Source: Alphaproteobacteria bacterium (GTDB lineage Bacteria; Pseudomonadota; Alphaproteobacteria; Micavibrionales; SZUA-601). From it: a stretch of DNA of 64,000 bases. The stretch spans positions 1,454,674-1,518,673 of the forward strand of contig OZ244156.1 in assembly GCA_965216395.1 (NCBI GenBank), read 5' to 3'. The notes beneath the pieces are model-generated. The model was not told where the DNA came from, ran no database searches, and saw nothing but the letters and a program-made list of their open reading frames with translations. A program made the position numbers and the translations under genes. Position 1 is the first letter of the stretch. Each line of letters begins with the position of its first letter. Below are positions 3,081 to 59,494 of this stretch, piece after piece.

Positions 3081-3560
3081 GTGGCACAGCAAGAAGAAAA
3101 AAGATTTAATAGTAAAACCCCCCTTTTAATGCTTGAATTCATAGCAGGTACGAGTATTTGTGTTGGTTTTATTGCTGATCAAAGTTTTAAAGTTCTAAGC
3201 GAATCCTATAATGATAGAGAATTCTATAATACGGTAATACAAAAAGCTGAATTAAAGATTTTAGAATCTGAAGCAAGTATCGAAAATACAAAAAACATAA
3301 ACCTTATTAAATATTACAAAGAAAATATTAGTGTTAGCAAAGAGGTTATAAATATTGCTCAGAACAATATTAATCCACTAACCGACACCTACCATAATAC
3401 AGCCATCTTGACTAGCGTAGCTATTGGTATTGCGATATCTGGGATGCTTCTCAAAGAGTTTAGTGAAAATATCCTTGGTGCTACTGATAAACTCAACAAA
3501 GACGTTGTAAATTTCATTACCGCGCCATTTAGGAAAAAATCTAACACACCAAAACCATAG
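3081..3560 (+). CDS. Hypothetical two-TM/coiled-coil protein ending KSNTPKP; probable paralog of 58835-59494
   Basis: 159-aa AT-rich ORF (GTG start), two hydrophobic segments flanking a charged helical region. Confidence 0.65.
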   Translation: MAQQEEKRFNSKTPLLMLEFIAGTSICVGFIADQSFKVLSESYNDREFYNTVIQKAELKILESEASIENTKNINLIKYYKENISVSKEVINIAQNNINPLTDTYHNTAILTSVAIGIAISGMLLKEFSENILGATDKLNKDVVNFITAPFRKKSNTPKP

Positions 3561-3577
3561 TTTTAAAAACTCTCAAT

Positions 3578-4252
3578 TTACTTTTTCCTATTAAATAAGG
3601 GAAAAGCAAGCAATCCGCTTAAAAATCCGCCAATATGTGCCAGCCAGGCGACGCTGATACTGGGGTCATCGACCACACCAATCAAGCCAAAAACGATATT
3701 AATACCGACCCAAATGATGGTGATGGGCATTAATCCGCGCCATCCGGGTTTGAAACGACCCATATTTTGCATGATCCGTAAGATGACACCAAAGAGACCA
3801 CTAATCGCCGCGGAGGCGCCCACCACCGGCACCATAGATTGTGGATAGGCCACAAAATGGGTAACCACGCCCGCCAAGCCACAGATCACAAAAAGACCGA
3901 GCAGTTTTTGACCGCCCATAGAACGCTCCACCGCTGTACCAAAAGCAAGTAACGACATCGTATTAAGTAAAAAATGTGTCCAGCCAATATGTAACCCCAT
4001 ATAGGTAAACATCGTCATGATATTAATCCCCAACAAAGATGGTGTCAGATTGGACAGATCACTTAAACGATGGGGAATAAAACCGACCGCATAGACAAAA
4101 AAGAGATCCTGTTGCGGCGTCAAAACACAAACCCGTATCAAATGAATCAGGGCTAAGATGGCCATTAGAATCCCCGTCACCCGCGGAATATTGAACAATG
4201 GCTCATGCGGGATTGGTTGATTATTTTTATCTTCTCTTTGATTATCCACCAT
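3578..4252 (-). CDS. Rhomboid family intramembrane serine protease
   Basis: H...H...N motif (LHIGWTHFLLN), GASAAISG catalytic Ser, AHIGG catalytic His. Confidence 0.92.
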   Translation of the reverse strand: MVDNQREDKNNQPIPHEPLFNIPRVTGILMAILALIHLIRVCVLTPQQDLFFVYAVGFIPHRLSDLSNLTPSLLGINIMTMFTYMGLHIGWTHFLLNTMSLLAFGTAVERSMGGQKLLGLFVICGLAGVVTHFVAYPQSMVPVVGASAAISGLFGVILRIMQNMGRFKPGWRGLMPITIIWVGINIVFGLIGVVDDPSISVAWLAHIGGFLSGLLAFPLFNRKK

Positions 4253-4257
4253 TTTTT

Positions 4258-4809
4258 TTAGGCTCTTTTTAAAATATCTTTGACCAAATTCATCGTGTCA
4301 AAAGGCGGTGCTTTTTGCATCACTTGCACCGCCGACATCAACCCTTCAAAAATAATAAAAAGTTTATAGGAGAGTGTGTCGGGGTCGGCCACACCCATTT
4401 CTTGGGCGAGTGAATAAAACATCCCCAATTCCCATTTTTTGAATTTTTGACACGATTGAATGATCGCCGTGTCTTTATCGGCAAATTCGCTCACCGCACT
4501 GACCACTAAACATCCGCAAAATTTTGGCTTAGAGAATTTAATATTAATGTAATCAAAAATAGCGATCACTTTATCTTGTGGAGATTTTGGCCGTGCTAAA
4601 ATAACGCGCATATCACGTTTGAACTGATCACGATACTGATCCATCACAGCCACGATCAGATCATTTTTACTAGGAAAATATTTGTACAAAGTGCGTTTAG
4701 ATACTTTGGCATGGGCCAAAATCATATCGATTCCCGTCGCGTAAAAGCCATTTTCACTAAACAACGCGGATGCGGTATCAATAATTTGTTGTTCTTTGGT
4801 TTTTTGCAT
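4258..4809 (-). CDS. TetR/AcrR family transcriptional regulator (NemR/ComR-like)
   Basis: N-terminal HTH (GFYATGIDMILAHAKVSKRTLYKYFPSKNDL) and GCLVV motif. Confidence 0.92.
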   Translation of the reverse strand: MQKTKEQQIIDTASALFSENGFYATGIDMILAHAKVSKRTLYKYFPSKNDLIVAVMDQYRDQFKRDMRVILARPKSPQDKVIAIFDYINIKFSKPKFCGCLVVSAVSEFADKDTAIIQSCQKFKKWELGMFYSLAQEMGVADPDTLSYKLFIIFEGLMSAVQVMQKAPPFDTMNLVKDILKRA

Positions 4810-4902
4810 GATTTTTATGTCAGTTTATTCAGTCTGATTTAAGTATACGCAAATTCTACCCCATGTAAACAGAATTGTGTACAAAAAGAAGCCGCTTATG
4901 CC

Positions 4903-4931
4903 TTGACAATATGTATACCGATCTGTATACT
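4903..4931 (+). promoter_or_regulatory. sigma70 promoter TTGACA-N17-TATACT overlapped by palindromic operator GTATAC-N6-GTATAC (4913-4930)
   Basis: Read directly. A degenerate second copy GTAAAC-N6-GTGTAC lies at 4865-4882, between the divergent TetR and CMD genes. Confidence 0.7.
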
Positions 4932-4968
4932 TTGATTCCAATAAACATTTAACCAAAGGATATTTATC

Positions 4969-5535
4969 ATGCCACGCATTCAACCCCTCACAAATCCAAC
5001 AGGTCAATCGGCCGAGCTGCTTGAAAATTTACGCAAAAATGTTGGTAAAGACCTCAATATTTTCACCACAATGGCGCATTCGCCCGCTGCTTTGAAAAGC
5101 TATATGGATTTTTCTGGGAATTTAAAAAATGGCGCTTTGGACGGACAGACTTTAGAAATTATTGCCTTAACATGTGCTGGTTACAATAAATGTAATTATT
5201 GCGCTTCGGCGCATAGTGTGATGGCGGAAAAAGCTGGATTGAACAAGGACCAAATTAAACATGCTTTGAACGGATCCTGTGATTGTAATGACCAAAGCAA
5301 AGCTGTGGTTAATTTCACAAAATCTCTGCTTAAAAACCATGGACAGGTGAATGATCAAGACGTTCAATCTGTTCAGGATGCTGGTTTTAATCAGCAACAG
5401 ATCATTGAAATGATCGCCGCAACATCATTGAACATTTTTACTAATTATTTTAACGAAGTCGCACAAACAGAGATTGATTTTCCAAAAGTTGAAACTTGTA
5501 ATGACGAAACATGTGGATGTAAAAACGCCGCATAA
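4969..5535 (+). CDS. Carboxymuconolactone decarboxylase/AhpD family peroxidase-related protein
   Basis: EIIALTCAGYNKCNYCASAH (CxxC...H) motif; N-terminal MPRIQPL; C-terminal NYFN...TEIDFP. Confidence 0.88.
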   Translation: MPRIQPLTNPTGQSAELLENLRKNVGKDLNIFTTMAHSPAALKSYMDFSGNLKNGALDGQTLEIIALTCAGYNKCNYCASAHSVMAEKAGLNKDQIKHALNGSCDCNDQSKAVVNFTKSLLKNHGQVNDQDVQSVQDAGFNQQQIIEMIAATSLNIFTNYFNEVAQTEIDFPKVETCNDETCGCKNAA

Positions 5536-5557
5536 TACAGGTTAAAAACTTTAAATT

Positions 5558-5589
5558 AAAAACAGGCGCTATAAAGCGCCTGTTTTTTT
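5558..5589. terminator. Intrinsic (likely bidirectional) terminator
   Basis: AAAAACAGGCGCT-ATAA-AGCGCCTGTTTTTTT. Confidence 0.85.
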
Positions 5590-5616
5590 GCAATTATATC
5601 TGATATACACGCTCTT

Positions 5617-6777
5617 ATGCGTAATATTAAACTGCTTTATATTTTTTCCTTCATGCGGCGGTTTCGTCTCTATGAAGCTTTTGCGATTGTTTATTACGCC
5701 GATATTGCTAATTCGTATACATTGGGGATGTCGGTCTTTGCGATTCACGCGTTTTCAACCGCTTTGTTAGAGGTACCAACAGGTATTCTTTCAGATAAAA
5801 TTGGGCGTAAGAAAACGCTGATTTTATCGACTGTTTTTTATACAATTTCGACCCTGATTTTCGCACTGGCGCAAGATTATATTCATCTTGTTTTTGGGGC
5901 CGTATTTGTTGCTTTGGGATATTCAACCATCAGCGGTACGGATAATGCTTTCATCTTTGAAATCTTGAAAAAAGAAAAAAAGCAACAGATGTATCATCAA
6001 TATAAGGGCACCTATGATGCGCTCAGCAAAGGTGCCCTTTGCTTATCGGCCATGATGGGCGGTGGATTGGTCTTATTTTTACCCATTCGCGCCCTCTATT
6101 TTATAACCTGTGTAACAACCGCTTTATCGGTTATTACGCTTTTTCCCTTAGAAGACATACAGCAAAAAACCGTGTCAAAAAGATCGGTGGGAACCTATCT
6201 GCATTATCTTTCTGCTTTGCGAAAGATCCGCCGCAACATAAAACTCAAAAACCTGACCTTCGCACAAATCATCAGTATGGGTATCGGCAATGCCACATGG
6301 CGTTTTCGTGCCAGTTTTGTTAAAGTTTTTTGGCCCTTATGGGCGATTGGGGTTTTGGAAACCGCATCCCAAATATTTTCGGTGATCGGTTTTCACTGGG
6401 GTCATAAAATTATTGATCGATGGGGTCATAAGAAACCGATTATTGGTCATGAATTAACCAACACATTGGCCATCGCTGCGGCGTTTTTGAGTAACTCCAT
6501 TCTCTCGCCCGCCTTACTGGCGATTGCGAATTTGACCTATCCCTATAAAACCTTGGCGATGGATCATCTGTTTCAAAAATCTTTTGATAATCAAAAACGC
6601 GCCACGATGGGTTCTATCGTCAGTTTTGGGGGCAATCTCCTCTATGCGATTTTTGCCGTGATTATGGGCGGCGTGGCTGATCTTTACGGTGTCCCCACGG
6701 CCATATTGATCGCCGGTTTTACCCAGTTAAGCGCCCTGGTTTTCTATCAACGCGCCTTTAAAGATCATATGGTTTAA
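5617..6777 (+). CDS. MFS transporter
   Basis: About 12 hydrophobic segments; EVPTGILSDKIGRK (MFS motif A) and SGTDNAFIFE. Confidence 0.88.
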   Translation: MRNIKLLYIFSFMRRFRLYEAFAIVYYADIANSYTLGMSVFAIHAFSTALLEVPTGILSDKIGRKKTLILSTVFYTISTLIFALAQDYIHLVFGAVFVALGYSTISGTDNAFIFEILKKEKKQQMYHQYKGTYDALSKGALCLSAMMGGGLVLFLPIRALYFITCVTTALSVITLFPLEDIQQKTVSKRSVGTYLHYLSALRKIRRNIKLKNLTFAQIISMGIGNATWRFRASFVKVFWPLWAIGVLETASQIFSVIGFHWGHKIIDRWGHKKPIIGHELTNTLAIAAAFLSNSILSPALLAIANLTYPYKTLAMDHLFQKSFDNQKRATMGSIVSFGGNLLYAIFAVIMGGVADLYGVPTAILIAGFTQLSALVFYQRAFKDHMV

Positions 6778-8191
6778 AAACTTTTTGACCCATCATTAAA
6801 AACACGAAACCGAATATTGGCCCCGCCAAAGAAGACAAGACGATTAAATCTGTCTGTTCAGAAATATTGGCATAAATCGAAAGGGGCAAGGAAAAGAGCA
6901 TACCACCCCAAATCGAGACCAATAAGGCTTTGGCTTTTATCTGAGGAAATAACACACTGGCGAAGGTGGGTACAAAACCCGTGGCCGCCACCGTGCCATA
7001 GATAAAAAACACCCATAATAATTTCGGTTGTAATAACGAAATACTTAAACCCAATATCGCCACCACCACCATAAATCGGCGTGAGAATGTTAAAATCTGA
7101 TCAGGGGCGGCGTGGTTGTCGAAATAAGATTGATAAAAATCAATCGCGCCAATCGCACTTAAACCACAGAATGCAGAATCCAACGTGGAACACAAACCCG
7201 CAAACGCCATAAGCAGAAATAAATAAAGCGCCCAGCGTGGCAACAAATATTCAATCACGGCCACGCCAACCATTTCTGGATTTGTGCCCAAATCAATCCC
7301 TTGATGGGCAAGTGTGACACCGATAAAACCCAACAGGCTCAGCATAATCGGCACCACCCCAAAAATCAAACCCCCACGCATAAAAACGCGGCGAATATGG
7401 TGTTGTTGAATCGCCAAGGCGCGTTGGTGAAACATTTGATCTGAAAGAGGGCCGGCCAATAAAGAAATCGTAATCGGAATCCCCATTGTATAGGCAATTT
7501 TACTGTTTAATATATCCCCAAATTCACCCGTCACACCGGCCAAACCCGATGTCACAGTTTCGATACCACCACTGGCAAAAATCGCCCAAGGAATCAAAAG
7601 TCCGCCAATCACAATAATCATTAACATTTGTAATATATCGGTCATCACCGATGCGCGTAAACCGCTGACCCAACAATAAGAAAGCGCAATAAAAACCATA
7701 GCGATCATGGTTACGCGCGGGTCAACACCACTGACCATATGCAAGAGCGCCCCCCCGGCCACCGCGTTAATGACAATCGCCCCAGTTTGATAAAGTAAAG
7801 CAATCATCGCAAAAGAAAGATGCAGCCATTGTGCGTTTGGAAAACGGGTGCGGATATAATGGGAAAACGTGTAACCCGCCGGCATCATTGTCCGAAAACG
7901 GATTGCAAAAAACGCAAAGACGAAAAAACATATAATATTGGGTGCAATAAACCAAAACGCACCGGGCAACCCTTTTTGATAAGATTGCAAAGATGCAATA
8001 AAAATCGCCGGCGCCCAAACCCAACTGACCGCAATACTGAAAGCCCCATGCCATGGGCTTAACTTTCGATCTGCGACCAAAAACCTATCCAAATTGGTTG
8101 CTTTTTTACGGGTTAATAACACCACGCCTAATGACGCGACATAAAATATAAGGGTAAGAATAAGGGTTTCATAAAAAGATAAAAATGCCAT
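6758..8191 (-). CDS. Sodium:solute symporter family transporter (DUR3-like urea/polyamine type)
   Basis: FLVADRKL, SIAVSWVWA, GLRASVMTDILQ, STLDSA motifs. Start placed at ATG 8191, which has GGAGG 8 nt upstream. Confidence 0.85.
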   Translation of the reverse strand: MAFLSFYETLILTLIFYVASLGVVLLTRKKATNLDRFLVADRKLSPWHGAFSIAVSWVWAPAIFIASLQSYQKGLPGAFWFIAPNIICFFVFAFFAIRFRTMMPAGYTFSHYIRTRFPNAQWLHLSFAMIALLYQTGAIVINAVAGGALLHMVSGVDPRVTMIAMVFIALSYCWVSGLRASVMTDILQMLMIIVIGGLLIPWAIFASGGIETVTSGLAGVTGEFGDILNSKIAYTMGIPITISLLAGPLSDQMFHQRALAIQQHHIRRVFMRGGLIFGVVPIMLSLLGFIGVTLAHQGIDLGTNPEMVGVAVIEYLLPRWALYLFLLMAFAGLCSTLDSAFCGLSAIGAIDFYQSYFDNHAAPDQILTFSRRFMVVVAILGLSISLLQPKLLWVFFIYGTVAATGFVPTFASVLFPQIKAKALLVSIWGGMLFSLPLSIYANISEQTDLIVLSSLAGPIFGFVFLMMGQKVFKPYDL

Positions 8192-8370
8192 GACGCATGC
8201 CTCCACCATTGTCACAAATGTCTCAAACATTTGTGTGTTGCAAAGCCCGTTATTCACCCATGAATAACGGTTCTTTATTGCGTCACATCATTCTCGATAA
8301 TGATATGCGGTTTCAGCGATGCTTGGCTTTTAAGGCCGGCATGTTCTCAACAACACACGCATCAGCCCCT
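8191..8370 (-). promoter_or_regulatory. Structured 5' leader with uORF MRVLLRTCRP* (8362-8330); candidate attenuator or riboswitch
   Basis: Perfect hairpins at 8213-8235 (9 bp), 8247-8270 (10 bp) and 8287-8304 (6 bp); competing long-range helices 8233-8240/8351-8358 and 8191-8197/8279-8285. Confidence 0.55.
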
Positions 8371-8446
8371 TGTTTTTAGAATATTTCCTATGGAAAAACA
8401 AGTTTTTTTGTATCTTTGGGAACAGTGTTGTACACTCACCCTTGTT

Positions 8447-9250: not shown

Positions 9251-9346
9251 TTTACGGATGAATATATCAAAATCTTCTCTACGAAAAATTAACCTTATTT
9301 GTGCCAGAATAACGTTTCTTTCAATTCTTTGACAAGGTTTTTGATT

Positions 9347-11146: not shown

Positions 11147-11230
11147 ACATACATAAGCGTGAATTTATAATTGACATAGGAATCATATTTTGACTATATA
11201 ATAGAGGTAAGAAGAAACGCTTACAGACAG

Positions 11231-12049: not shown

Positions 12050-12098
12050 GCCAAATATTGGCTTGACTCTCTGTTTCTTTATTGAACATAATACCTTT

Positions 12099-14313: not shown

Positions 14314-14325
14314 AAAAGCTTATTT

Positions 14326-14919
14326 TTAATTTGGTGTTTTTTGAGATTGTCCACCCACAACAATGCGCGGATTTTCAACCGGATGCGTTCTAAGCAATAA
14401 AACAGAAGTTTTACTTTGCGCCATTTGTGTGTAACGGGTTTCTGAAGATTGCACGGGTAAGATACCCATTGATTTTAAATTGGAACAAAAATTTTGATAT
14501 TGCGTTTGACATATCTGACCAACTGTTTGATAGTTTTGAAAATTTGTTTTATCAGAAAGCGTAAAACGATCCTTTAAATCTTTCACAAGTTGGTTATTGT
14601 ACCGAAAATCATCATTCAGTTCTTGATTAAAAGGGGCGCGTCCTGCATAAGCATCATCATAATTTTTAATAGATAATTTGAGAAGTTCATCTCTTTGATT
14701 GATGGCATATTCTTTAATTTTTTCAACACGCCGCCAAGCCTCTAATTCATAATTGGTTTTGGCAATAATATTCCCCTTTTTATCACGCTCAAACGGATAA
14801 TCCAGAATCCGCGTTCCCTCATAATCATCGGGATGCGCAGGGTGGTCTTTCTTATTAAAACCCAACAAAGATTGCACCGATAAAGCAATATTCCGTATGA
14901 TGTTTTTTCTTAAATTCAT
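14326..14919 (-). CDS. Hypothetical protein
   Basis: 197-aa ORF; ATG lies 6 nt after a TATTGACATA-N15-TATGTT promoter. Confidence 0.65.
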   Translation of the reverse strand: MNLRKNIIRNIALSVQSLLGFNKKDHPAHPDDYEGTRILDYPFERDKKGNIIAKTNYELEAWRRVEKIKEYAINQRDELLKLSIKNYDDAYAGRAPFNQELNDDFRYNNQLVKDLKDRFTLSDKTNFQNYQTVGQICQTQYQNFCSNLKSMGILPVQSSETRYTQMAQSKTSVLLLRTHPVENPRIVVGGQSQKTPN

Positions 14920-14925
14920 GCCATG

Positions 14926-14956
14926 AACATATCACAAACTAAACATTATGTCAATA
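14926..14956 (-). promoter_or_regulatory. Extended promoter, TATTGACATA (14956-14947) + TATGTT (14931-14926)
   Basis: Exact 10-mer on the minus strand, 17-bp spacer. Confidence 0.65.
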
Positions 14957-14986
14957 TAAATTGTTACAAAACCCATATGTAATAAT

Positions 14987-15016
14987 TATTGACATATTAT
15001 AAATAATGATTATGTT
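14987..15016 (+). promoter_or_regulatory. Extended promoter, TATTGACATA (14987-14996) + TATGTT (15011-15016)
   Basis: Exact 10-mer, 16-bp spacer; back-to-back with the minus-strand copy. Confidence 0.6.
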
Positions 15017-15024
15017 GAGTGATT

Positions 15025-15922
15025 ATGAGTAACCCAAATATAAATTATCGACCGATTCTCGACCATCCTGATTACCGCATGGGTTTGGAGATGATTCAAG
15101 CCGAGAATTACAAAGATGAGATTTATGTTTATGGTGGGGCGGTTTGTGATTATATCCTCTATCAACAGGGCGTGATCAAGGAATATCAACCGAATGATTT
15201 TGATCTTTTGATCCGCGTGAATGCTGAAGATTTTTCAAAACGGCTTGATCGTTTATATGAAAGTGGTCATTTAAAGCCACTTAAAGAGGGCCAAAAGCCT
15301 TTTCACAATATTGGTAAACATTCAGCTTTTCGAGTTATTTGGCAAAAGGAAGGTCTAAAACCAAAACACATTGATATTAAATGTATTGGGGAAGATAATT
15401 AAAGATTTAGAGAAAAAAGGGTTGTTTAAAAACTTACCCTTCGAACCCGCCTTGGGCAGTGCGGTCATGGAAAAAGTGGTAACCTTAGAAGAAAAGTTAG
15501 GTTTAAAACCACAGCGCGGGACACGTATCTTAAGTGCTTATAATGGAAATAAAGAAACCATCTGCCGTGATACAGTGATCAATAATTTGCAAATTATGAC
15601 AGAATGGCAGAAAGAGACGGAAACGCGCGAAAATAAGCTCAAAAATATGTTCAGAAAACAAAAAGAAAAAGATCAAATTCTGAAAATTGTTGAAGATATA
15701 GATCAAGAACCCGATAACGCTACACTTTTTGAGCTGTATAAAACAAATTGGTGTAATATGAAAGCACAAGATCAGCTCACCTGTTTACTACTTTCAGAGA
15801 CCGTTTATCAAATATTGACCGACTCATCAGATGAAGTAAATTTAGAAAAATTAGTCGTAAAAGAGTATTTTAACGATATCAAAGCACGATCAGATGGCGC
15901 GTCTCTTTTCAACGCACCCTAA
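15025..15922 (+). pseudogene. Class II nucleotidyltransferase (CCA-adding/poly(A) polymerase head)-like gene split by a +1 frameshift near 15390
   Basis: ORF 15019-15402 has YVYGGAVCDYIL...PNDFDLLI. The overlapping ORF 15371-15922 has ETICRDTVINNL (cf. EDxxRRDFTINA). Removing one G from ATTGGGGAAG joins the frames. Confidence 0.55.
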
Positions 15923-23293: not shown

Positions 23294-23509
23294 ATGGTTC
23301 ATTCAACAGATATAACAACCGATTTCTGTCAATTACCCAGCAATGATTGTGATCATGCCCGTATCGGTAATATTTCTGTACAAAGCCTGAAAAAAACCGC
23401 GCGGCGTTTTAAAATTCGTAATATTCGTGTTCGTAAATCAGATGATGTACTTTATACAAAACCTTTTCGTTCTAATAATAATGTGCCCATGGGTCATCGC
23501 ATCTATTAA
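23294..23509 (+). CDS. Small hypothetical protein
   Basis: 71 aa, AAGGAG SD upstream, intrinsic terminator immediately downstream. Confidence 0.6.
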   Translation: MVHSTDITTDFCQLPSNDCDHARIGNISVQSLKKTARRFKIRNIRVRKSDDVLYTKPFRSNNNVPMGHRIY

Positions 23510-23528
23510 AAGATTAAGATCGTAACGT

Positions 23529-23558
23529 AAAACCGCCTAAATTTAAGGCGGTTTTTTT
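23529..23558 (+). terminator. Intrinsic terminator
   Basis: AAAACCGCCT-AAATTTA-AGGCGGTTTTTTT. Confidence 0.85.
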
Positions 23559-23571
23559 ATGCTTAAAAAAA

Positions 23572-23601
23572 TATTGACATAAAATTATTTTTCTTTATAT
23601 T
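23572..23601 (+). promoter_or_regulatory. Extended promoter, TATTGACATA (23572-23581) + TATATT (23596-23601)
   Basis: Exact 10-mer, 16-bp spacer; upstream of orphan 23631. Confidence 0.55.
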
Positions 23602-23630
23602 TTTATACATAATCATATAGGAGGCAAAAA

Positions 23631-24005
23631 ATGGGTAGTGTAAAATACGGGGGCGGTTTTGCAGATGGTGAAGAGCCAAAAGAAGATAAAAAAGGTCTTT
23701 TGGATTTCGACGTCATTTTCAAAAAGAAACAAATCCTTATATACGGGGCGATTTTACTTGCTGGACTTTTTAGTGGCTTAGCCATTGGCGACGATATGAA
23801 AAAAAATAAGCAAGATATCGAAAATAATCATATCCGTCATGAAAATAGATTGGCCAAAGTGCATCGGGCGGAGGAAGAACGGCTTCAGCAAAAGATAGAA
23901 GACACCACTGTTTATTTTCAAGAACAATTAAAGATCACAAAACAAAGTCTTGAAGATTGTCAGAATAAACCAATTATTCAAGACGTTAAGCCAATCATCA
24001 ATTAA
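23631..24005 (+). CDS. Hypothetical single-TM coiled-coil protein
   Basis: 124 aa, GGAGG SD, one hydrophobic segment followed by a charged helical region. Confidence 0.7.
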   Translation: MGSVKYGGGFADGEEPKEDKKGLLDFDVIFKKKQILIYGAILLAGLFSGLAIGDDMKKNKQDIENNHIRHENRLAKVHRAEEERLQQKIEDTTVYFQEQLKITKQSLEDCQNKPIIQDVKPIIN

Positions 24006-33023: not shown

Positions 33024-34187
33024 ATGGCTGCGAAAAAAAAAGTGACCCCAAAAACGACGGTCACATCTAAAAAAATTGCTGTGGTTCTATTTAACCTTGG
33101 TGGACCGACGGGTCCGAAAACGATTAAACCATTTTTATTTAATTTCTTTAGTGATCCCAATATCATTCCTTTGCCAAAACCATTGCGTTGGTGTTTGGCG
33201 AAATTGATTTCCCATTTACGTTCTCGTGGTGAGGCCGGCGAAGCGTATGGTGAAATGGGCGGGGGGTCGCCGTTATTAGAAAATACCATCGCCCAACAAC
33301 GCGCCTTGGAAGAGGCTCTGGTTAAAATAACCCCAGATAAGACAGAAATTCGCACCTATACATGTATGCGTTATTGGCATCCCATGGCACCGAGTATCGC
33401 GCCACAGGTGCAGGCTTTTAACCCAGATCAAATTATGTTGGTGTCGCTTTATCCCCAATTTTCAACGACAACTTTTTGGTCATCTTTGGCGCAATGGTTT
33501 ACGGTGACAAAAAAAATTGGCCTTGATAAGCCCACGACAACTTTTTGTTGTTATCCCCAATTGGATGGTTTTATCAAAGCATCGGTTGAACATATTCGCG
33601 CCCAATATCAAGCCTGTAAAAAAGCCACGGGTAAAGCGCCCCGAATTTTATTCTCCGCCCATAGTTTACCGGAAAAAATTGTCAAAAATGGTGATCCTTA
33701 TGCGTGGCAGTGTGAGCAAACCATCAAAGCGATTGTCAAAAAAATGCCCTATAAAAAGCTGGACTATGTGGTGTGTTATCAATCGAAAGTGGGCCCGCAA
33801 AAATGGCTCGGTCCCCAGACAGAGGATGAGATTGAACGCGCCGGTCACGAAGGCGTGCCTGTGATTGTTTATCCGCATGCTTTTGTTTCTGAACATGTTG
33901 AAACCATCGTTGAATTAGGGGTGGAATATGCAGAAGTTGCCCATGAAGCCGGTGTGCCGTGGTATGGTGTGGTGAAAACGGTGGGGACCCATCCCGCCTT
34001 TATCAATGATTTGGCGAAATTGATTAAAAAACGCCTCGGTTCAAATAAAAAGATTGTCAATGGCACCGCTTCGGGCAAGCGTAATTGCCCCATGCCTTAT
34101 GATAAATGTTGTCAACGCCGTTATGATGAATTATTGAAAAATCCGCCATGTTGTGGTGGAAAATGCGGTTGCAAGGATGTGGGATAA
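33024..34187 (+). CDS. hemH: Ferrochelatase with a Cys-rich C-terminal extension
   Basis: LFNLGGP, MRYWHP, LYPQFSTTT, FSAHSLP, YQSKVGP, FVSEHVETIVEL. Confidence 0.96.
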   Translation: MAAKKKVTPKTTVTSKKIAVVLFNLGGPTGPKTIKPFLFNFFSDPNIIPLPKPLRWCLAKLISHLRSRGEAGEAYGEMGGGSPLLENTIAQQRALEEALVKITPDKTEIRTYTCMRYWHPMAPSIAPQVQAFNPDQIMLVSLYPQFSTTTFWSSLAQWFTVTKKIGLDKPTTTFCCYPQLDGFIKASVEHIRAQYQACKKATGKAPRILFSAHSLPEKIVKNGDPYAWQCEQTIKAIVKKMPYKKLDYVVCYQSKVGPQKWLGPQTEDEIERAGHEGVPVIVYPHAFVSEHVETIVELGVEYAEVAHEAGVPWYGVVKTVGTHPAFINDLAKLIKKRLGSNKKIVNGTASGKRNCPMPYDKCCQRRYDELLKNPPCCGGKCGCKDVG

Positions 34188-34192
34188 TAAAA

Positions 34193-34223
34193 TATTGACA
34201 TAATTTAATATTCGTCTTATTTA
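34193..34223 (+). promoter_or_regulatory. Extended promoter element TATTGACATA (34193-34202)
   Basis: Exact 10-mer just after the hemH stop; weak -10 (TATTTA) at 17 bp; GNAT ATG at 34231. Confidence 0.5.
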
Positions 34224-34230
34224 TAAAGTT

Positions 34231-34671
34231 ATGAATATCGAATTTAAACCTATTCCTGATCAAGAAATTGCAGAAGCTTTGCAATTGCTAGAAGTTTTTT
34301 CACAAAATGGTGAAAATATAACCATGGATCAAAGAATAGAAGCTTATCAAAAAGCAAAAAAATATAACAGCTATCAACTTTATGGTGGTTATGAAGAAAA
34401 TAAGTTACAAGCGGTTGTTGGGATTCGTCCCGTTCATAATCCAAGTGATTGTCGCTTAATTTTTGAGGCCAATAATCTTGTCGTTGTCGAAGATCAACAA
34501 AAACAAGGCATTGGTAGTTTTATGTTTGAAAAAATCGGCGAACATGTTAAAGACCAGGGCGGTTTCGCATTTAAATTTTTTGTTGCGAATTCTAATTTAG
34601 AACTCGTTGATTTTTATGAAAAACGTGGTGCTGGGCAAGCGGCGTGTCAAATGATGTATCTTAAGGTTTAA
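34231..34671 (+). CDS. GNAT family N-acetyltransferase
   Basis: LVVVEDQQKQGIGSFM motif A, FYEKRG. Confidence 0.85.
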   Translation: MNIEFKPIPDQEIAEALQLLEVFSQNGENITMDQRIEAYQKAKKYNSYQLYGGYEENKLQAVVGIRPVHNPSDCRLIFEANNLVVVEDQQKQGIGSFMFEKIGEHVKDQGGFAFKFFVANSNLELVDFYEKRGAGQAACQMMYLKV

Positions 34672-34677
34672 ACCAAA

Positions 34678-35124
34678 ATGCAAAATTTTCTTCTTGAATA
34701 TTATTTGGTGATTAAATCACTCCATATCATTGCCTTTACGGCGTGGATGGCCGGGCTTTTTTATTTGCCGCGTCTCTTTGTCTATCATACCCAAGTCGCG
34801 CCTTTATCCGAAGCATCAGAAAAATTCAAAATTATGGAACACAAGTTGCTGAAAATTATTATGAATCCGGCGATGATCATCACTTGGATTTTGGGATTGA
34901 TGATGCTTTACGTTATGCCGGAATATTTTTCCCAAGGTTGGATGCATGTTAAGTTTTTATGTGTGATTCTTTTAAGTGGTTTTCAAGGTTTTTTATCCGT
35001 TACGCGCAAAAAATTTGCCCTTGATAAAAATCAACGCTCTGAGCGTTTTTACCGCATTATAAATGAGATTCCGACCATTTTTCTGATCCTGATTGTCTTT
35101 ATGGTTATCTTAAAACCATTTTAA
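34678..35124 (+). CDS. hemJ: Protoporphyrinogen IX oxidase HemJ
   Basis: KSLHIIAFTAWMAGLFYLPRLFVYH, NPAMI, RIINEIPT, VILKPF. Confidence 0.96.
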   Translation: MQNFLLEYYLVIKSLHIIAFTAWMAGLFYLPRLFVYHTQVAPLSEASEKFKIMEHKLLKIIMNPAMIITWILGLMMLYVMPEYFSQGWMHVKFLCVILLSGFQGFLSVTRKKFALDKNQRSERFYRIINEIPTIFLILIVFMVILKPF

Positions 35125-49241: not shown

Positions 49242-49251
49242 TATTGACATA
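49242..49251 (+). promoter_or_regulatory. Extended promoter element TATTGACATA
   Basis: Exact 10-mer upstream of orphan 49299. Confidence 0.55.
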
Positions 49252-49298: not shown

Positions 49299-49841
49299 AT
49301 GACCGATAAAACAGAAAACAAGAAAACAAATCGTTTCAGATCCTCTATTGATCGTGTACTGACCGCGCTTTCATACCCGTATTTTAGAGAGAATAAAGAT
49401 GATACGGCTGTTGAAGAAGAACGCTCGACCTCCCTTATGCAGCATGTTGAAGGGGATGGTTTTGCTGATTTATCCTATGAGGATTATCCAGTTTTGATAA
49501 GGGATTATGTTGAGTTGTTTTTTGATATGAGTGAAGAAGAAAAATTAAAAAATCGTTATGATTATAACTCCAAAACATACAACTGTTACGACGCTTTAAT
49601 TGAAAAATTGGATCATGATCTTGCACAAACGGAAGATCCCATTAAAAAAGAGTTTATGGAGGCGTGTCGTTCTGATTGGTTTCAAGATAAATTAGAATTG
49701 CCTGCCAAATTATACGCTATCAATTACGAAGCATGTAATCGATTGATAAATAGTCTTGAGACAGATATCAAAAACCTTAATGTAGTTCTTGATGCGTTGG
49801 ATTATCTATCTGATGTGATAAAAAATTCACCAAAACCTTAG
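49299..49841 (+). CDS. Hypothetical helical protein ending IKNSPKP
   Basis: 180-aa AT-rich ORF. Confidence 0.65.
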   Translation: MTDKTENKKTNRFRSSIDRVLTALSYPYFRENKDDTAVEEERSTSLMQHVEGDGFADLSYEDYPVLIRDYVELFFDMSEEEKLKNRYDYNSKTYNCYDALIEKLDHDLAQTEDPIKKEFMEACRSDWFQDKLELPAKLYAINYEACNRLINSLETDIKNLNVVLDALDYLSDVIKNSPKP

Positions 49842-49864
49842 AACTTGCTTTAGTTGAGATGGAT

Positions 49865-50227: not shown

Positions 50228-50278
50228 AATTCAAATATAAGAAATCTAGACATATTTGTCAATTATTATGTTAAAAAA

Positions 50279-50288
50279 TATTGACATA
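50279..50288 (+). promoter_or_regulatory. Extended promoter element TATTGACATA
   Basis: Exact 10-mer upstream of the lipoprotein trio. Confidence 0.55.
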
Positions 50289-50348
50289 AGGTGAATTTAT
50301 GATTAAAAACAGGAAACGATCATAGAAATAACCAGAGAAATAAGGCAT

Positions 50349-50852
50349 ATGAAAAACAATATTCTTAATCTTTTTACCAAAACGGCCGCGGTCATAATGG
50401 GGGCGTTTGTTATGAATGCGTGTATGACTAATAACAAAAAGAAAACCCAAGATTTAGATATTATAAATATAGAAACCATTAAGGTAAATAAATCAGATAT
50501 TTGGTATTTTGATGCCGTTGGTTACGTAGAAAACGAGTTATATGTCGATTCTCCAATACTTGATCAACTAGAGAAAGAAGACCCCGAAACACGCAATGAT
50601 AGTCTCATTAATCAGCTAATCAGAAATAATATAAAATATGATTTTGCTTATCTGAGATTAAATTTTGAAAAAAACATCGCAAGTATCAGAACCTTCTCAA
50701 ATGATAAATCAGGCGAATTAAAAAAGAATCCTGATCTTAACATTAATTTTGAGATAAAAGATTTATCCGAACAATTTAAAGCGAATGGTCTTGAAACAGC
50801 ACAATTGGCTTATTACACAAGAAAAAAACAAAGAAAAGAAATGGGTTTATAG
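50349..50852 (+). CDS. Putative lipoprotein
   Basis: Basic N-terminus, hydrophobic core, MNA-C lipobox-like site. Confidence 0.7.
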   Translation: MKNNILNLFTKTAAVIMGAFVMNACMTNNKKKTQDLDIINIETIKVNKSDIWYFDAVGYVENELYVDSPILDQLEKEDPETRNDSLINQLIRNNIKYDFAYLRLNFEKNIASIRTFSNDKSGELKKNPDLNINFEIKDLSEQFKANGLETAQLAYYTRKKQRKEMGL

Positions 50853-50886
50853 TTAGAAAGCTGACAAACTAACTGGAGAAAACATA

Positions 50887-51351: not shown

Positions 51352-51527
51352 TGACTGTAAGATTAAATCAATTTAAAAAAATAGCCTTAATTGTCGCGGC
51401 GCCCTTCATCTTTTCCGCCTGTCATCCATGCAAAAAATTGGATATAAACGGTTTTGATGATAATCAAAAAAGTGTTTTTCTTAAGCCAAATCAGGCGCAG
51501 AAAAATGTCTATGAATTGAAAATTTAA
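51351..51527 (+). CDS. Small putative lipoprotein
   Basis: 58 aa; ATG overlaps the upstream TAA; FSA-C lipobox-like site. Confidence 0.55.
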   Translation: MTVRLNQFKKIALIVAAPFIFSACHPCKKLDINGFDDNQKSVFLKPNQAQKNVYELKI

Positions 51528-51530
51528 GCC

Positions 51531-54098: not shown

Positions 54099-54140
54099 AT
54101 CTGTGACCTTATTATATATATGTATCTGGGCGCGTTATGT

Positions 54141-54665
54141 TTACCGTCCCGTTTGGGCCACGCGCAATTGGCGTGCACGGGTGAGGATGGTGTCTTCTAA
54201 TTGACGGGTTGTCCCCGGCGCCACAGGGGCATCGCGCCAAAGACCCGCATTATCCTTCACCTGACGGAAGGCCGAAACCCGCACACCATCGGCGCGTAAA
54301 TTCGTGTCCAAAATAATAATATTCAATTTTAAACGCTCATTCTTGGACGGGTCGGGTTCATACCAATCGGTCAAGATGGTGCCTCCAAAGGGATCGGCAC
54401 TGCTGATCGGCATAAAAGAGACCGTATCGAGCGAGGCGCGCCATAAATACGCATTGACCCCAATTCCAGAGCCACCGCCTTGTTTTTTATCCTTATTACC
54501 AAAGATATTGATACCGCTTTCACCGAACACACTGTCGCGCTGATTATTATAAACCAGATCATCATCCCCTTCTTGACGGGTGGGATATTCAGCCACAGGA
54601 TCCATTTTTGAACATCCTGTCACAATAAAAAGGGCACATATAGCGATAAAAAGACGTTGGAGCAT
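54141..54665 (-). CDS. DUF3576-type lipoprotein
   Basis: TGC lipobox; VNAYLWRASLDTVSFMPISSADPFGGTILTDWY; upstream of leuS. Confidence 0.88.
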   Translation of the reverse strand: MLQRLFIAICALFIVTGCSKMDPVAEYPTRQEGDDDLVYNNQRDSVFGESGINIFGNKDKKQGGGSGIGVNAYLWRASLDTVSFMPISSADPFGGTILTDWYEPDPSKNERLKLNIIILDTNLRADGVRVSAFRQVKDNAGLWRDAPVAPGTTRQLEDTILTRARQLRVAQTGR

Positions 54666-54961
54666 TTATTTTTCCTAATGATTAATAGTTGAGAGAGTAT
54701 TTTTAGCCTATTTTGAGCAAAATTCAATCGCAAATTCTTAAAACACCCTTAAAAAATTGGCTCAAAACCGCAAAAAATTAACCAATTGGTAATAAACCTG
54801 TTGCGCAGATGACACAGTTATCAGTTTTTAATGATAAAATGATGGGTTTTATGTTGACGGTGCATACATGAGGGCGTTACGAATAGAACCTGATCTTACC
54901 GGTGCGATCCGGATGGGTCGTACTTAAATCTATCCAAAAACATTTCTTGGAGGAAATGCAA

Positions 54962-56047
54962 ATGAAAAAATTACTATTAATGACAACTGCTGTTGCTGGT
55001 TTGGCATTTATGCCTGCTGCGGCTCAAGCTGAAATTGATCTTGACCTTGGTGGCTATTTCAAAGGTTACGTTGGTGCAACTGATCAAGACACAACTGGTG
55101 TTGATGATTTCGGTTGGAAGCGTGAATCTGAACTTCACATCAACGGTGAAACAACATTGGACAATGGTCTAACTGTTGGTGCACGTTTCGAAATCCAAAC
55201 AGAAGCAGACGCTGGTGCTAATGACACTGAAGAGTCATACATCTATTTCTCTGGTAACCTTGGTCGTGTAAACCTTGGTGCTGAAGACGGTGCTGCGTAT
55301 CTTCTACAGATTGCTGCGCCATCTGCAGACTCAAACATTGACGGCATTGATCCAGACATCTCTTTCGTTAACATCAATGGTGCTGTTGTAACACCAACAC
55401 GTTACGAATTGGCTCCAACTGCTGATGCGGACAAAATCACATATTTGACACCAAAATTCTCTGGTTTCCAGGCGGGTGTTTCTTATGCAACTGACGCGAC
55501 ACAAGACGTTGTTGGTTCTGGTCTAACAGGTCAAAATGCTGACCCAGCTCTTGCTGGTGCTGGTACTTTGGGCGACATCGTTGAAGTTGCTGCACGTTAC
55601 GACGCAGAAGTTGAAGGCGTAGGCGTTCACTTAGGTGCGGGTTATGTAACTGCTGACCAAGCAAATGCTTCTGCAGACTCATCTGACTATGACGGTTGGA
55701 ATCTTGGTGCGAAGTTTGACATCGGTGCATTCGGTGTTGGTGCTTCTTACTCAGAGCAAGAAAACTTCACTGGTAACGGCGAAGAGTCTGAAGTTCTTGT
55801 TGTTGGTGCTGACTATGTAACAGGCCCATACAAGTTCGGTGTTTCTTACTTCAACTCTGAAACTGACCAAACTGGTGTTCTTGGAACTGACGAAATTGAT
55901 CGTTACTCTGTTGGTGCTGGATACACATTCGGCCCTGGTATGAGCTTCCGTGGTTCTGTTCACGTGTATGACATCGAAGACGGTGACACACCTGCGAACG
56001 ACAACGATGCGACAACATTCGTATTGGGTACAGACATCCAGTTCTAA
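54962..56047 (+). CDS. Outer-membrane porin (alphaproteobacterial type)
   Basis: Signal peptide ending AQA, TLDNGLTVGARFE, ITYLTPKFSGFQAGVSY, terminal Phe. Confidence 0.93.
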   Translation: MKKLLLMTTAVAGLAFMPAAAQAEIDLDLGGYFKGYVGATDQDTTGVDDFGWKRESELHINGETTLDNGLTVGARFEIQTEADAGANDTEESYIYFSGNLGRVNLGAEDGAAYLLQIAAPSADSNIDGIDPDISFVNINGAVVTPTRYELAPTADADKITYLTPKFSGFQAGVSYATDATQDVVGSGLTGQNADPALAGAGTLGDIVEVAARYDAEVEGVGVHLGAGYVTADQANASADSSDYDGWNLGAKFDIGAFGVGASYSEQENFTGNGEESEVLVVGADYVTGPYKFGVSYFNSETDQTGVLGTDEIDRYSVGAGYTFGPGMSFRGSVHVYDIEDGDTPANDNDATTFVLGTDIQF

Positions 56048-56070
56048 TTTCATAGAACTTAAGAATTTAG

Positions 56071-56097
56071 AAAAAGGACACTTCGGTGTCCTTTTTT
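56071..56097. terminator. Intrinsic terminator with cUUCGg loop after the porin
   Basis: AAAAAGGACAC-TTCG-GTGTCCTTTTTT. Confidence 0.92.
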
Positions 56098-56295
56098 ATT
56101 GCGCGTTTTTTAATGTATAAAGTTTTTAAAGACCCTATTCTTGTGTGTATAGCTTGGTTTTATTGACTAATGGGTCAACAGTTTGAAATATTTAAAGATT
56201 TTTCAAGACGAATCGCTTATCCTTTTTTTGTTTGGTATTTTGTTTTTTAAACAGCAAGCCTTGTAACCGTATCAGGAACAGCCTATATTCTGTGA

Positions 56296-57378
<1,083 letters not shown>

Positions 57379-57400
57379 ATAAAGGATATGAACACCCCCC

Positions 57401-58273
57401 ATGCAAGAACCGTTTCGTCATAATAAAACCGCGCAGACCAATGTATTTTCATACTATTGGCCACGTCGCTTATTTAGCGAAAGAATGACGATGGGTTTAT
57501 ACTTATTTTTTGCCGTTTTTTTAATGATCATGTCGCATTTTAATCAAGGTTTTGCCAAAACCAGTCGTATGGTCGTTTATGATACGGTTTCACCAGCGAT
57601 GAAATTGGTCTCTAAACCGTTCCAAACCGTGGGGCAAGGAATTTATCATCTTACAGGTCTATCTAATTTAGTGACGGAAAATAATCGTTTGCGCGAAGAA
57701 AATGACCGTTTAAAAAAATGGTATGATCAGGCTTTAACATTGCAAGCGGAAAATAAAAGTCTCAAATCCTTTGTTAATTTAACAGATTTACCCCGTTATA
57801 ATTATGTGACAGCGCGGGTTGTCGCCGATACGGGGAGTGTCTTTGCCCAATCCGCAATGATTGATGCTGGAACGCGCCACGGTGTGCAAGAAGGTTTTGT
57901 GGCGCTTCATAGTGATGGATTAATTGGTCGTGTCGTGGAAACGGGGCGTTGGTCTTCGCGGGTTTTATTGGTTACTGATGTCAATTCGCGCATTCCTGTC
58001 GTCGTGGAAGAATCACGGCATCGCGCTGTTGTTGCCGGGCGCAATGGGCGTGATATTCAACTCCTTTATTTATCTGAAGAGGCCAGTGTTTCGGTGGGTC
58101 AACGTTTGGTTACCTCTGGTCATGGGGGTGTGTTTGCACCGGGTATTCCCGTGGGTGTGATTACGCATGTTGATGGCGGTGATATACGGGTGAAACCGAT
58201 TGTTGATTTGGACCGGATTGAACATATGCAATTGGTCGATTTTGGTCGTACCGTTGTTTTGAACATGCAGTAA
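57401..58273 (+). CDS. mreC: Rod shape-determining protein MreC
   Basis: TM plus coiled coil, GLIGRV, TSGHGGVFAPGIPVG. Confidence 0.95.
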   Translation: MQEPFRHNKTAQTNVFSYYWPRRLFSERMTMGLYLFFAVFLMIMSHFNQGFAKTSRMVVYDTVSPAMKLVSKPFQTVGQGIYHLTGLSNLVTENNRLREENDRLKKWYDQALTLQAENKSLKSFVNLTDLPRYNYVTARVVADTGSVFAQSAMIDAGTRHGVQEGFVALHSDGLIGRVVETGRWSSRVLLVTDVNSRIPVVVEESRHRAVVAGRNGRDIQLLYLSEEASVSVGQRLVTSGHGGVFAPGIPVGVITHVDGGDIRVKPIVDLDRIEHMQLVDFGRTVVLNMQ

Positions 58274-58285
58274 TATTTTTAAATT

Positions 58286-58816
58286 ATGACGCTTTATCAT
58301 CATAAACCAAGTTTGCGCGATATTCTTTGGGGATTGGTTCCCTTTATGGTGATGCTTGGCTTTATTTTTCTTTCAATGGTGATTAAACAACTGCCGATGC
58401 GTATGATTTATGCGCCTTTACCAATTATCCCGCTGTTTTATTGGGCCGTGTTTCGATCCAATGCGCTTTCTCTGGGGGCGGTTTTTATCATTGGTCTGAT
58501 CCTTGATTTTCTATCCGGTGTGCCGATTGGTGCACATGCTTTTATTTATGTTTTAGTCTTTTTTATGAGCAAAAACCAACGTCGCTTTTTAACCGGCCAA
58601 GGTTTTCTTATGATGTGGGTCTATTTTTTATGTATTTGTTTGGGTCATCAAATTTTATTATGGCTGGGTTACTTAATGTTTCATCCCGTTATTGATGAAT
58701 TATGGCTGCATCTTATGATCAGTGGCGCGGTCACGGCCGCTTTATTGCCGATCTTTTTCCCACTTTTAACGCGGATTAATATCCGCCTTGATCGCGCTGA
58801 GGCAGAAACATTTTAA
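58286..58816 (+). CDS. mreD: Rod shape-determining protein MreD
   Basis: Hydrophobic; FYWAVFR, GLILDFLSGVPIG; follows mreC. Confidence 0.88.
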   Translation: MTLYHHKPSLRDILWGLVPFMVMLGFIFLSMVIKQLPMRMIYAPLPIIPLFYWAVFRSNALSLGAVFIIGLILDFLSGVPIGAHAFIYVLVFFMSKNQRRFLTGQGFLMMWVYFLCICLGHQILLWLGYLMFHPVIDELWLHLMISGAVTAALLPIFFPLLTRINIRLDRAEAETF

Positions 58817-58834
58817 TGACAGGTAATTAGAAGC

Positions 58835-59494
58835 TTAAGCTTTTGGGCCGTTGTTTTTATTAGAGATACCAAGGAGCTGTTTTGTTTTATCGGCACAAAT
58901 TTCTGGAAAATTCTCATGAAAGTTATTGTATCTTTGGTTATCTCTAAGAAGGACTATCATAAATGGTAAAATAAGTGCACCAAAGAGCCCCATAGTTTTT
59001 TCGTATCCTTTATTTGGTTCGCTATTAGGGTCATATTCTTTTTCTTTGATTTCCACTATTTCTTCTTCATGATATTTTATCATATTTTTGTGATGTTCAA
59101 TTGTATTTTCGTATAGGTCTTTTTTTGTGACAGGCTTTAAACCTCGGTCAGGGTCCTTAAGTGTGACTTTTTCACCATTATAGTAAAAATCAATATGTTT
59201 ATTCTTTTTATCCGCATGCACGATTTCTAAAGTATCAGTCGGATTGACATAGCGTTTATTATTAAGTCTATCTTCAAGATATCCTATATTCCACTCAGAT
59301 TCTGCAATTTCCCAGCGTATATCTTTGATTTCATTTTTTTTACCCGTTTCAAAATCCGCTGTTACATAGGCTCTGGAGCCATATTTACCAAGCGCAAAGC
59401 CAGTAATTGCAATAAGGCTAAAATATGTTACGCGATAAAAATTTCCCAAGGCTGTACGTTTTTTCTGTTCTTCTTCTTTCGGCTTTTCTTCCAT
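58835..59494 (-). CDS. Hypothetical two-TM/coiled-coil protein ending NNGPKA, antisense between mreD and mrdA
   Basis: AT-rich ORF; start placed at ATG 59494 because ATG 59533 lies within the -10 element. Confidence 0.65.
   Translation of the reverse strand: MEEKPKEEEQKKRTALGNFYRVTYFSLIAITGFALGKYGSRAYVTADFETGKKNEIKDIRWEIAESEWNIGYLEDRLNNKRYVNPTDTLEIVHADKKNKHIDFYYNGEKVTLKDPDRGLKPVTKKDLYENTIEHHKNMIKYHEEEIVEIKEKEYDPNSEPNKGYEKTMGLFGALILPFMIVLLRDNQRYNNFHENFPEICADKTKQLLGISNKNNGPKA

Follow-up and report, generated by a model that had tools for sequence, protein, structure and literature searches.

Type IVB (Dot/Icm) secretion is understood almost solely from Legionella and Coxiella, where the translocation signal is diffuse and effectors have been found singly. 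Type IV signals are depleted of acidic residues at the last positions and enriched in K, P, S, T, N and 'TP' (PMC3915618); they show a hydrophobic residue near position -3 together with small polar residues, and some Legionella effectors carry no E-block (PMC12981334). For type IV substrates, a positively charged C-terminus, hydrophilicity of the protein as a whole and an upstream motif in common have also been described (PMC3814349). Here we analysed a 64,000-nucleotide stretch of DNA (the window, C1:1454674-1518673) from the genome of an alphaproteobacterium of the order Micavibrionales, which consists of one contig of 1.65 Mb with 39% GC. The rho gene in the window was 77% identical to genes from Alphaproteobacteria metagenome-assembled genomes (MAGs). 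Three orphan proteins of the window end in a short tail of the form N-x-P-K-[P/A] and are preceded by the same promoter word, TATTGACATA. This ending is the sharpest variant of a broader tail signature found in ~38 species-specific genes. We tentatively propose, with a confidence just short of even, that these genes form a co-regulated, fast-turnover set of candidate type IVB substrates marked by a C-terminal signal peculiar to the lineage. Coordinates are those of the window unless preceded by a contig name.

The first orphan is a protein of 159 residues (3081-3560, plus strand) with two strong hydrophobic segments, at about residues 13-33 and 107-127, and the tail K-S-N-T-P-K-P (3537-3557, plus strand), directly followed by a TAG stop. 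Its promoter (3017-3047, plus strand) comprises TATTGACATA at 3017-3026, with TTGACA, a 17-nucleotide spacer and TAGCAT. The second orphan, of 219 residues, is encoded on the minus strand (58835-59494); it has a strong C-proximal hydrophobic segment and a weak N-proximal one, and its tail K-N-N-G-P-K-A (58838-58858, minus strand) precedes a TAA stop. The corresponding promoter (59529-59559, minus strand) has TATTGACATA at 59559-59550, TTGACA, a 17-nucleotide spacer and TATGTT after TG. The third is a soluble protein of 180 residues (49299-49841, plus strand), whose tail K-N-S-P-K-P (49821-49838, plus strand) is again followed by TAG and whose promoter core TATTGACATA (49242-49251, plus strand) has the ATG 47 nucleotides downstream. 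A preliminary description of this DNA had reported the endings KSNTPKP, KNNGPKA and KNSPKP and an exact TATTGACATA for all three; the translations agreed with these endings, and the word lay directly 5' of each orphan (3017, 49242 and, on the minus strand, 59550). The ATG at 59494 used there is the correct start for the orphan ending KNNGPKA, because the alternative ATG at 59533, which would give a longer ORF, falls within the -10 element of the promoter (59557-59529). No homolog of the 3081-3560 product was found among 5.8 billion proteins, none of the 49299-49841 product among 1.84 billion representative proteins, and none of any of the three in 60 related genomes, the same genus included. 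A structure model of the 49299-49841 protein was all-helical and of low confidence (pLDDT, the predicted local distance difference test, 54), which did not suffice to search for related folds.

In form, TATTGACATA is a sigma-70 promoter close to consensus, its -35 element being extended. Nine sites were present in the window versus 0.16 expected, and 40 exact sites genome-wide versus ~2 for the reversed word; 38 of the 40 were located 16-89 nucleotides (median 53) upstream of the start of an open reading frame (ORF). From a genome-wide set of 1,717 non-overlapping ORFs, obtained by crude greedy calling, we defined the promoter class as the 38 ORFs behind an exact TATTGACATA and compared it with the 1,679 ORFs without the promoter (others). 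When the presence of every ORF in a whole genome of the same genus (1.336 Mb) was classified by tblastn, 0 of 38 promoter-class ORFs had a homolog, compared with 1214 of the 1679 others (72%; 28% were absent). The accessory share was 100% behind the exact motif, 75% behind words with one mismatch and 43% behind other TTGACA promoters. The promoter word itself is a marker of species-specific genes. Class members are AT-rich (GC 33.8%) and mostly short, and ~80% of the 26 that were scanned had no Pfam domain. Their products are hydrophilic, with a grand average of hydropathy below -0.5 in 66% of the class versus 18% of core genes, and most lack a signal peptide, a hydrophobic N-terminus being present in 8% versus 26% of core genes.

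This arrangement resembles the PmrA and CpxR regulons of Legionella and Coxiella, in which a shared cis element marks unrelated orphan candidate effectors and has served for their prediction (PMC3814349, PMC12239595). Unlike the elements of those regulons, the promoter TATTGACATAA, with its extended -35 and near-consensus sigma-70 form, contains no tandem response-regulator box. It could be nothing more than a constitutive promoter of very high strength.

The tail was strongly associated with this promoter. The pattern N.PK[PA]$, chosen post hoc, matched three of the 1,717 ORFs, all of them in the window, with 0.04 expected (Poisson P 1e-5). Relaxing it to PK[PA]$ gave 4/38 class members versus 0/1679 others (Fisher 2e-7), and two further class ORFs end in TPK; [STG]PK.?$ was found in 5/38 versus 1/1679 (2e-8), and the generalised tripeptide [PLFY]K[^KRDE]$ in 9/38 (24%) versus 35/1679 (2%, 2e-7). 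Considered position by position, Lys at -2 occurred in 32% of the class versus 12% of others, Leu at -3 in 26% versus 11.5%, and at least one Pro among the final five residues in 37% versus 14%. Asp and Glu made up 3.9% of the last six residues in the class and 11.6% in others (8e-5). The mean net charge of the last 12 residues was +1.21, compared with -0.37 for core genes (9e-7), and a net charge of at least +2 over the C-terminal 25 residues was reached by 50% of the class versus 29% of core genes (p = 0.01). The preliminary description had put forward N-x-P-K-[P/A] as a candidate signal; it is not the signal as such but a single form among those that a looser pattern allows. That description had also pointed to PK or KP near the ends of other orphans; this does not constitute a motif, although the underlying trend, Pro in the last five residues, is real.

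We consider it very improbable that these endings reflect no real signal and arise from chance, composition, crude ORF calling or post hoc choice of patterns. Such a reading can draw on the facts that the motif was taken from the data after many regular expressions had been tried, that accessory genes generally lean the same way, that species-specific ORFs of the same-genus genome lack the tripeptide excess and that the products of 3081-3560 and 58835-59494 are not significantly similar. The exact motif was nevertheless seen three times against the 0.04 expected, and features that had not been tuned to it, namely Asp and Glu in the last six residues, net charge and the presence of Pro among the final five, replicated outside the window (p 1e-4 to 4e-6) and in three other genomes (below). 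Among the 29 promoter genes located there, Asp and Glu in the last six residues amounted to 3.4% versus 11.7% (1e-4) and the net charge was +1.38 versus -0.25 (4e-6); PK.?$ (p = 0.003) and the generalised tripeptide (p = 0.002) remained enriched. Comparison of tail and interior within the same proteins, which removes gene-level composition, gave the same result. Pro accounted for 8.9% of the last five residues versus 1-6% further in, and Asp and Glu for 3.9% of the last six versus 15-17% at -13 to -60, where they are mildly raised in the class.

General disorder or orphan composition was rejected as a cause, as the enrichment was limited to the last 5-6 residues and survived two controls. Low-GC small ORFs did not show the signature. 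The 465 other accessory (species-specific) ORFs had PK.?$ in 1.5% of cases versus 16% of the class (1.5e-4), [PLFY]K[^KRDE]$ in 3.9% versus 24% (5e-5) and an acid-free last eight residues in 47% versus 71% (0.0035). The signature also followed the quality of the promoter: behind exact, one-mismatch and other TTGACA promoters, Asp and Glu in the last six residues came to 3.9%, 5.5% and 11.8%, and the net charge to +1.2, +0.5 and -0.5.

The same association was recovered in relatives. In three genomes that represent other families of the order, we counted 34, 24 and 23 TATTGACATA sites. From the DNA 3' of 79 such sites in these genomes we took the first ORF each, yielding 75 complete ORFs, and used 143 neighbouring ORFs from the same loci as controls. 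Pro in the last five residues was present in 41% of the promoter-linked ORFs versus 22% of the neighbours (p 0.003), a PK.? end in 8% versus 1.4% (p 0.02) and Lys at -2 in 23% versus 7.7%. The net charge of the last 12 residues was +0.88 versus +0.18 (p 0.011), and Asp and Glu constituted 4.7% of the last six residues of the promoter-linked ORFs (8.5e-7). Only six TATTGACATA sites were found in the same-genus genome. The enrichment of the tail that the preliminary description had anticipated among orphans was therefore borne out for a defined orphan class, both across the whole genome and in its part beyond the window, and also in relatives.

Several explanations at the level of DNA or translation were tried and rejected. 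AT-rich gene ends are not the cause, the GC content of the last six codons being equal to that of the rest of the gene, and no DNA repeat was found at the 3' ends, where similarity did not extend beyond the stop codons. The word CCAAAACC exceeded its dinucleotide expectation fivefold, with 22 sites in the window (for example 3549 and 49830); as a DNA element it was dismissed, since its frequency was as 7-mers predict and it occurred in all frames and on both strands. Terminator hairpins over the stop codons were absent from the three loci, and other residues with GC codons were not enriched. Lys at -2 favours termination. Selection for efficient termination is countered by the terminal Pro and by the excess of TAG over TAA. 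A reading of the LKL and FKL ends as peroxisomal targeting signals (PTS1) or PDZ ligands was discarded because -3 is large, hydrophobic or Pro, not small.

Another reading holds that promoter and tail travel together in a pool of mobile or fast-evolving cassettes, the tail being a leftover without present function. It would fit the species-specificity of all 38 genes and their clustering at 800-905 kb and 1449-1515 kb of the genome, as well as the several members inserted singly between core genes whose counterparts in the same-genus genome are adjacent. The flanks of two such inserts, 58816-59606 and 34187-34678, lay 52 nucleotides apart there, and a third (23509-24002) corresponded to a 260-nucleotide gene-free gap. 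The class includes a PcfJ-like protein, whose family is known to occur on conjugative plasmids. Two neighbouring class genes, at C1:870789 and 871604, share an identical 19 nucleotides, cgcggtttcaattgattga, just 5' of the motif, as if a promoter module had been duplicated. Set against this, the class proteins are mutually unrelated and formed no families in an all-against-all BLASTP, there was no DNA similarity past the stops, and CCAAAACC is no special word. A leftover shared by unrelated proteins, and by different families of the order, would not remain restricted to the final five residues, nor would it persist in an aminopeptidase family at 35-40% identity (below). We regard this explanation as quite unlikely. 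Taxonomically restricted orphan small-protein families in flexible genomic islets offer a likeness, being species-specific, AT-rich and short, with their own promoters and inserted singly. To our knowledge, such islet orphans share neither a positional C-terminal signature nor a tie to a secretion system.

The fourth protein with a P-K-[P/A] end is an M29-type aminopeptidase (Pfam 3e-28) encoded at C1:819597-821084 (plus strand), which is also a member of the promoter class. It is a full-length member of a family of ~490-residue proteins with 283 homologs; fusion of an aminopeptidase to an N-terminal extension was rejected, since the whole 495 residues correspond to the conserved family. Family members end in NYFDKPKP, NHFDKPKA, DYYNKPKGP, GPKL, DPKL or GPKV, a few residues past a conserved RPxYW[KQ], and Pro was present in the last five residues of 70 of 120 homologs. 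Pro/Lys endings persisted in homologs that are only 35-40% identical, and P-K-[P/A/L/V]-COOH is therefore a feature that the lineage maintains. A paralog without the promoter (C1:1280528-1282036) aligned as far as RPDYWK and then continued into a different 19-residue end lacking the tail. The aminopeptidase thus shows an ending under selection in the Micavibrio-like lineage, leaving the reader of the tail unspecified.

The preliminary description had regarded 3081-3560 and 58835-59494 as a dispersed paralog pair. Were they diverged paralogs, their tails could be shared by descent, which we judge doubtful. Three short collinear matches between the two, and a similar layout, in which a charged helical region lies between two hydrophobic segments and a short basic tail follows, would be consistent with common ancestry. 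A long-gap alignment scored 92.5 versus 67.6 +/- 10 in region-preserving shuffles (p ~0.017), with settings picked post hoc. In the same-genus genome (G001) a tandem trio of species-specific orphans (C12:35062-36065, minus strand; 77-114 residues, Gly-rich, with two transmembrane segments) bears similar short basic tails, ending in ENSPKP, RDYNP and SNTHP, and has TTCTTGACATAA upstream of one gene. On the other side, BLASTP detected no significant similarity between the pair (best E 0.47), and the standard Smith-Waterman score of 45 compared with 34.5 +/- 5.7 in shuffles, 5% of which equalled it (p ~0.05). The transmembrane-coiled coil-transmembrane architecture ascribed to both held for 3081-3560, with its two strong segments, but not for 58835-59494, in which the C-proximal segment alone is strong and the first segment is weak (19-residue hydropathy maximum 1.02). 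Descent is unnecessary to explain the tail, since the same ending is borne by the aminopeptidase and by the soluble orphan at 49299, which is unrelated.

A search of the genome for type IV secretion, proposed in the preliminary description as a check, revealed a Dot/Icm type IVB system that included the coupling complex DotL-DotM-DotN. The genes are split over three loci: C1:126528-137072, 1159950-1162779 and 1641904-1646096, all on the minus strand. The 126-137 kb locus encodes DotI/IcmL (5e-58), DotH/IcmK (2e-69), DotG and DotN/IcmJ (3e-21 to PDB 5X42), in an order that we take to be collinear with Legionella icmL-K-E-G-C-D-J-B. DotD (1e-29), DotC/TraI (1e-74), a DotB-like ATPase and IcmT (5e-28) are found at 1.16 Mb, and DotL (813 residues) and DotM (9e-50) at 1.64 Mb. 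The machine is of the same type as that of Legionella and Coxiella, its identified parts being DotB, C, D, G, H, I, L, M, N and IcmT. The DotO position is occupied by a 1021-residue Walker-A protein that had no Pfam, NCBIfam or PDB sequence match and was 87% identical in the same-genus genome. This degree of conservation, together with the presence of DotM in 55 of 61 genomes of the order, indicates that the system is core and vertically inherited. Relatives of DotM turned up in 361 genome stretches; the titles of many read 'uncultured Micavibrio sp.' or 'Bdellovibrionales', and the same-genus genome is among them, which marks the lineage as Micavibrio-like. The Dot/Icm genes adjoin an R64-type type IVb pilus operon.

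VirB4 (PF03135) had no match in the genome. To conclude from this that type IV secretion is lacking would be misleading, because the PF03135 model does not match the type IVB ATPase. VirD4-like matches were limited to DotL and one gene on a mobilizable island. The tails share a net positive, non-acidic character with substrates of the VirB/VirD4 systems of Agrobacterium, Bartonella and Anaplasmataceae (PMC3814349, PMC12981334). Unlike the setting of those systems, this genome has no VirB4-type ATPase (PF03135), and the known VirB/VirD4 signals are Arg-rich, not Pro-Lys. Needham et al. (2022) list a type IVB system in seven marine Micavibrionales, in passing (PMC9418006); our search of the literature found no study of Micavibrionales type IVB substrates.

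Taken together with the tail, the presence of this machine suggests that the promoter-class proteins may be putative substrates (effectors) of the Dot/Icm system. The coupling complex would meet the unstructured, basic Pro/Lys tail in the cytoplasm. In the two membrane orphans, this would happen once the protein has been inserted into the inner membrane, an order of events proposed for transmembrane effectors of Legionella, which take a two-step inner-membrane route and have a cytoplasmic C-terminal signal (PMC11602083, PMC12981334). The common strong promoter would co-express the set, and its composition would change rapidly from one species to the next, like the effector repertoires of Legionella. 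Resemblance to Dot/Icm effectors extends to a signal within the last ~20 residues, with an acid-free end enriched in K, P, S, T and N (PMC12981334, PMC3915618). It further includes hydrophilic proteins without a Sec signal, mostly without known domains and from species-specific repertoires, and some membrane proteins with a cytoplasmic C-terminus (PMC12981334, PMC3915618, PMC11338181). The exported-effector idea of the preliminary description is hence partly supported, by the tail enrichment, the presence of a type IV system and a tail profile that fits published signals, but not as regards the paralog pair or N-x-P-K-[P/A] as the signal. We know of no description of a discrete Pro-Lys or Leu-Lys end for Dot/Icm signals.

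A number of observations weigh against a type IVB role for the class. The adaptors IcmS and IcmW, and also LvgA, were not identified in the genome, nor was DotA. No E-block was seen: EExxE occurred in 0% of the class within the last 30 residues and ExxE in 8% versus 11% of core genes. In lacking both E-blocks and identified adaptors, the system differs from those of Legionella and Coxiella. Hydrophobic residues at -3/-4 were only weakly enriched, in 71% of the class compared with 62% of accessory (p 0.3) and 53% of core genes (p 0.03); the three focal tails have Pro at this position. No eukaryotic-like domains were found in the 26 scanned class members, and the aminopeptidase looks housekeeping-type, which would be odd for a substrate. 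The sharp [PLFY]-K-x end is carried by about a quarter of the class only, and some members end acidic, for instance in IGEDN. The same-genus genome also encodes this secretion system, and its 203 species-specific ORFs as a whole showed no tripeptide excess. As to the data, the ORF set is a crude greedy call rather than a curated annotation, the motif and several of the regular expressions were set post hoc with the data already seen, and the first comparison with relatives used a background from this genome alone. Finally, Micavibrio aeruginosavorus has been reported to have type I and II systems and no type IV system (PMC3189940). This 2011 report is no proof that the lineage lacks the system, given DotM in Micavibrio MAGs and the record in marine Micavibrionales (PMC9418006).

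The tail could also be functional with another reader, such as a degron or stability tag, a membrane or nucleic-acid contact, or another export route, for example TolC-dependent type I secretion; we hold this to be unlikely. The positional signature and the conservation of the aminopeptidase ending point to selection, not to a particular reader, and three TolC-family genes are present. TAG stops were enriched in the class (32% versus 18% elsewhere), and in Escherichia coli a C-terminal Pro slows termination and triggers SsrA tagging, in line with this alternative. Against it, the known C-terminal degrons that ClpXP and Tsp recognise are of a non-polar kind (-LAA type) and type I protease signals are acidic-then-hydrophobic, both unlike the basic Pro-Lys end; the class tails are basic, not acidic-hydrophobic, and the 26 scanned members had no RTX (repeats-in-toxin) or GG repeat domains. 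The aminopeptidase of M. aeruginosavorus ends in ...DPKL, in a species for which no type IV system was reported (PMC3189940). DotM relatives in many Micavibrio MAGs, and the type IVB system noted in marine Micavibrionales (PMC9418006), argue in the opposite direction.

A bolder form of the type IVB reading can be stated, to which we assign a low probability. Here Dot/Icm would inject a changing arsenal of orphan proteins, expressed from the promoter TATTGACATAA, into prey bacteria or protists, and DotL-DotM-DotN would read a basic Pro/Leu-Lys-x tag with neither an E-block nor IcmSW. The host differs from Legionella and Coxiella in belonging to an alphaproteobacterial, Micavibrio-like lineage, whose cultured members prey on bacteria and are not dwellers in eukaryotic cells.

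The window contains six other members of the promoter class. The first (454-1347, plus strand) has its motif at 454 and an ORF at 514-1347 encoding 277 residues without a Pfam match, ending in SPFIIR. At 14326-14956 (minus strand) a motif at 14947(-) precedes an ORF at 14326-14919, whose product of 197 residues ends in SQKTPN; at 14987-15402 (plus strand) the motif at 14987 is followed by an ORF at 15019-15402 (127 residues), the acidic exception ending in IGEDN. The member at 23572-24005 (plus strand; motif 23572, ORF 23631-24005) has 124 residues and the end VKPIIN. A GNAT acetyltransferase of 146 residues, ending in MYLKV, is encoded at 34193-34671 (plus strand; motif 34193, ORF 34231-34671). 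The last (50279-50852, plus strand; motif 50279, ORF 50349-50852) is a protein of 167 residues with a lipoprotein-like N-terminus and the end KEMGL. The two members near 15 kb are divergent orphans, 14326-14919(-) and 15019-15402(+), and between them (14947-14996) two exact TATTGACATA stand back to back, 40 nucleotides apart. Elsewhere in the genome, an overlapping double motif, TATTGACATATTGACATA, is present at C1:701841-701858. The site corresponding to 3008-3578 in the same-genus genome holds a different set of three genes, two of them response-regulator-like ORFs and the third a histidine-kinase-like ORF.

Two easily scored marks, the promoter word and the positional tail, coincide on the same species-specific genes and provide a short candidate list, and the tail yields a sharply defined peptide, such as NTPKP-COOH. 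The set offers a way to ask what Dot/Icm does in relatives of bacterial predators. If the bolder form of the type IVB reading were true, no discrete sequence motif would have been known for a type IVB signal before this tail, and the class would be the first type IVB effector set outside the Legionella-like gammaproteobacteria, possibly belonging to the first bacteria-targeting type IVB system. If the tail is read by something else, it would still be an unexplained, selected C-terminal tag on unrelated proteins.

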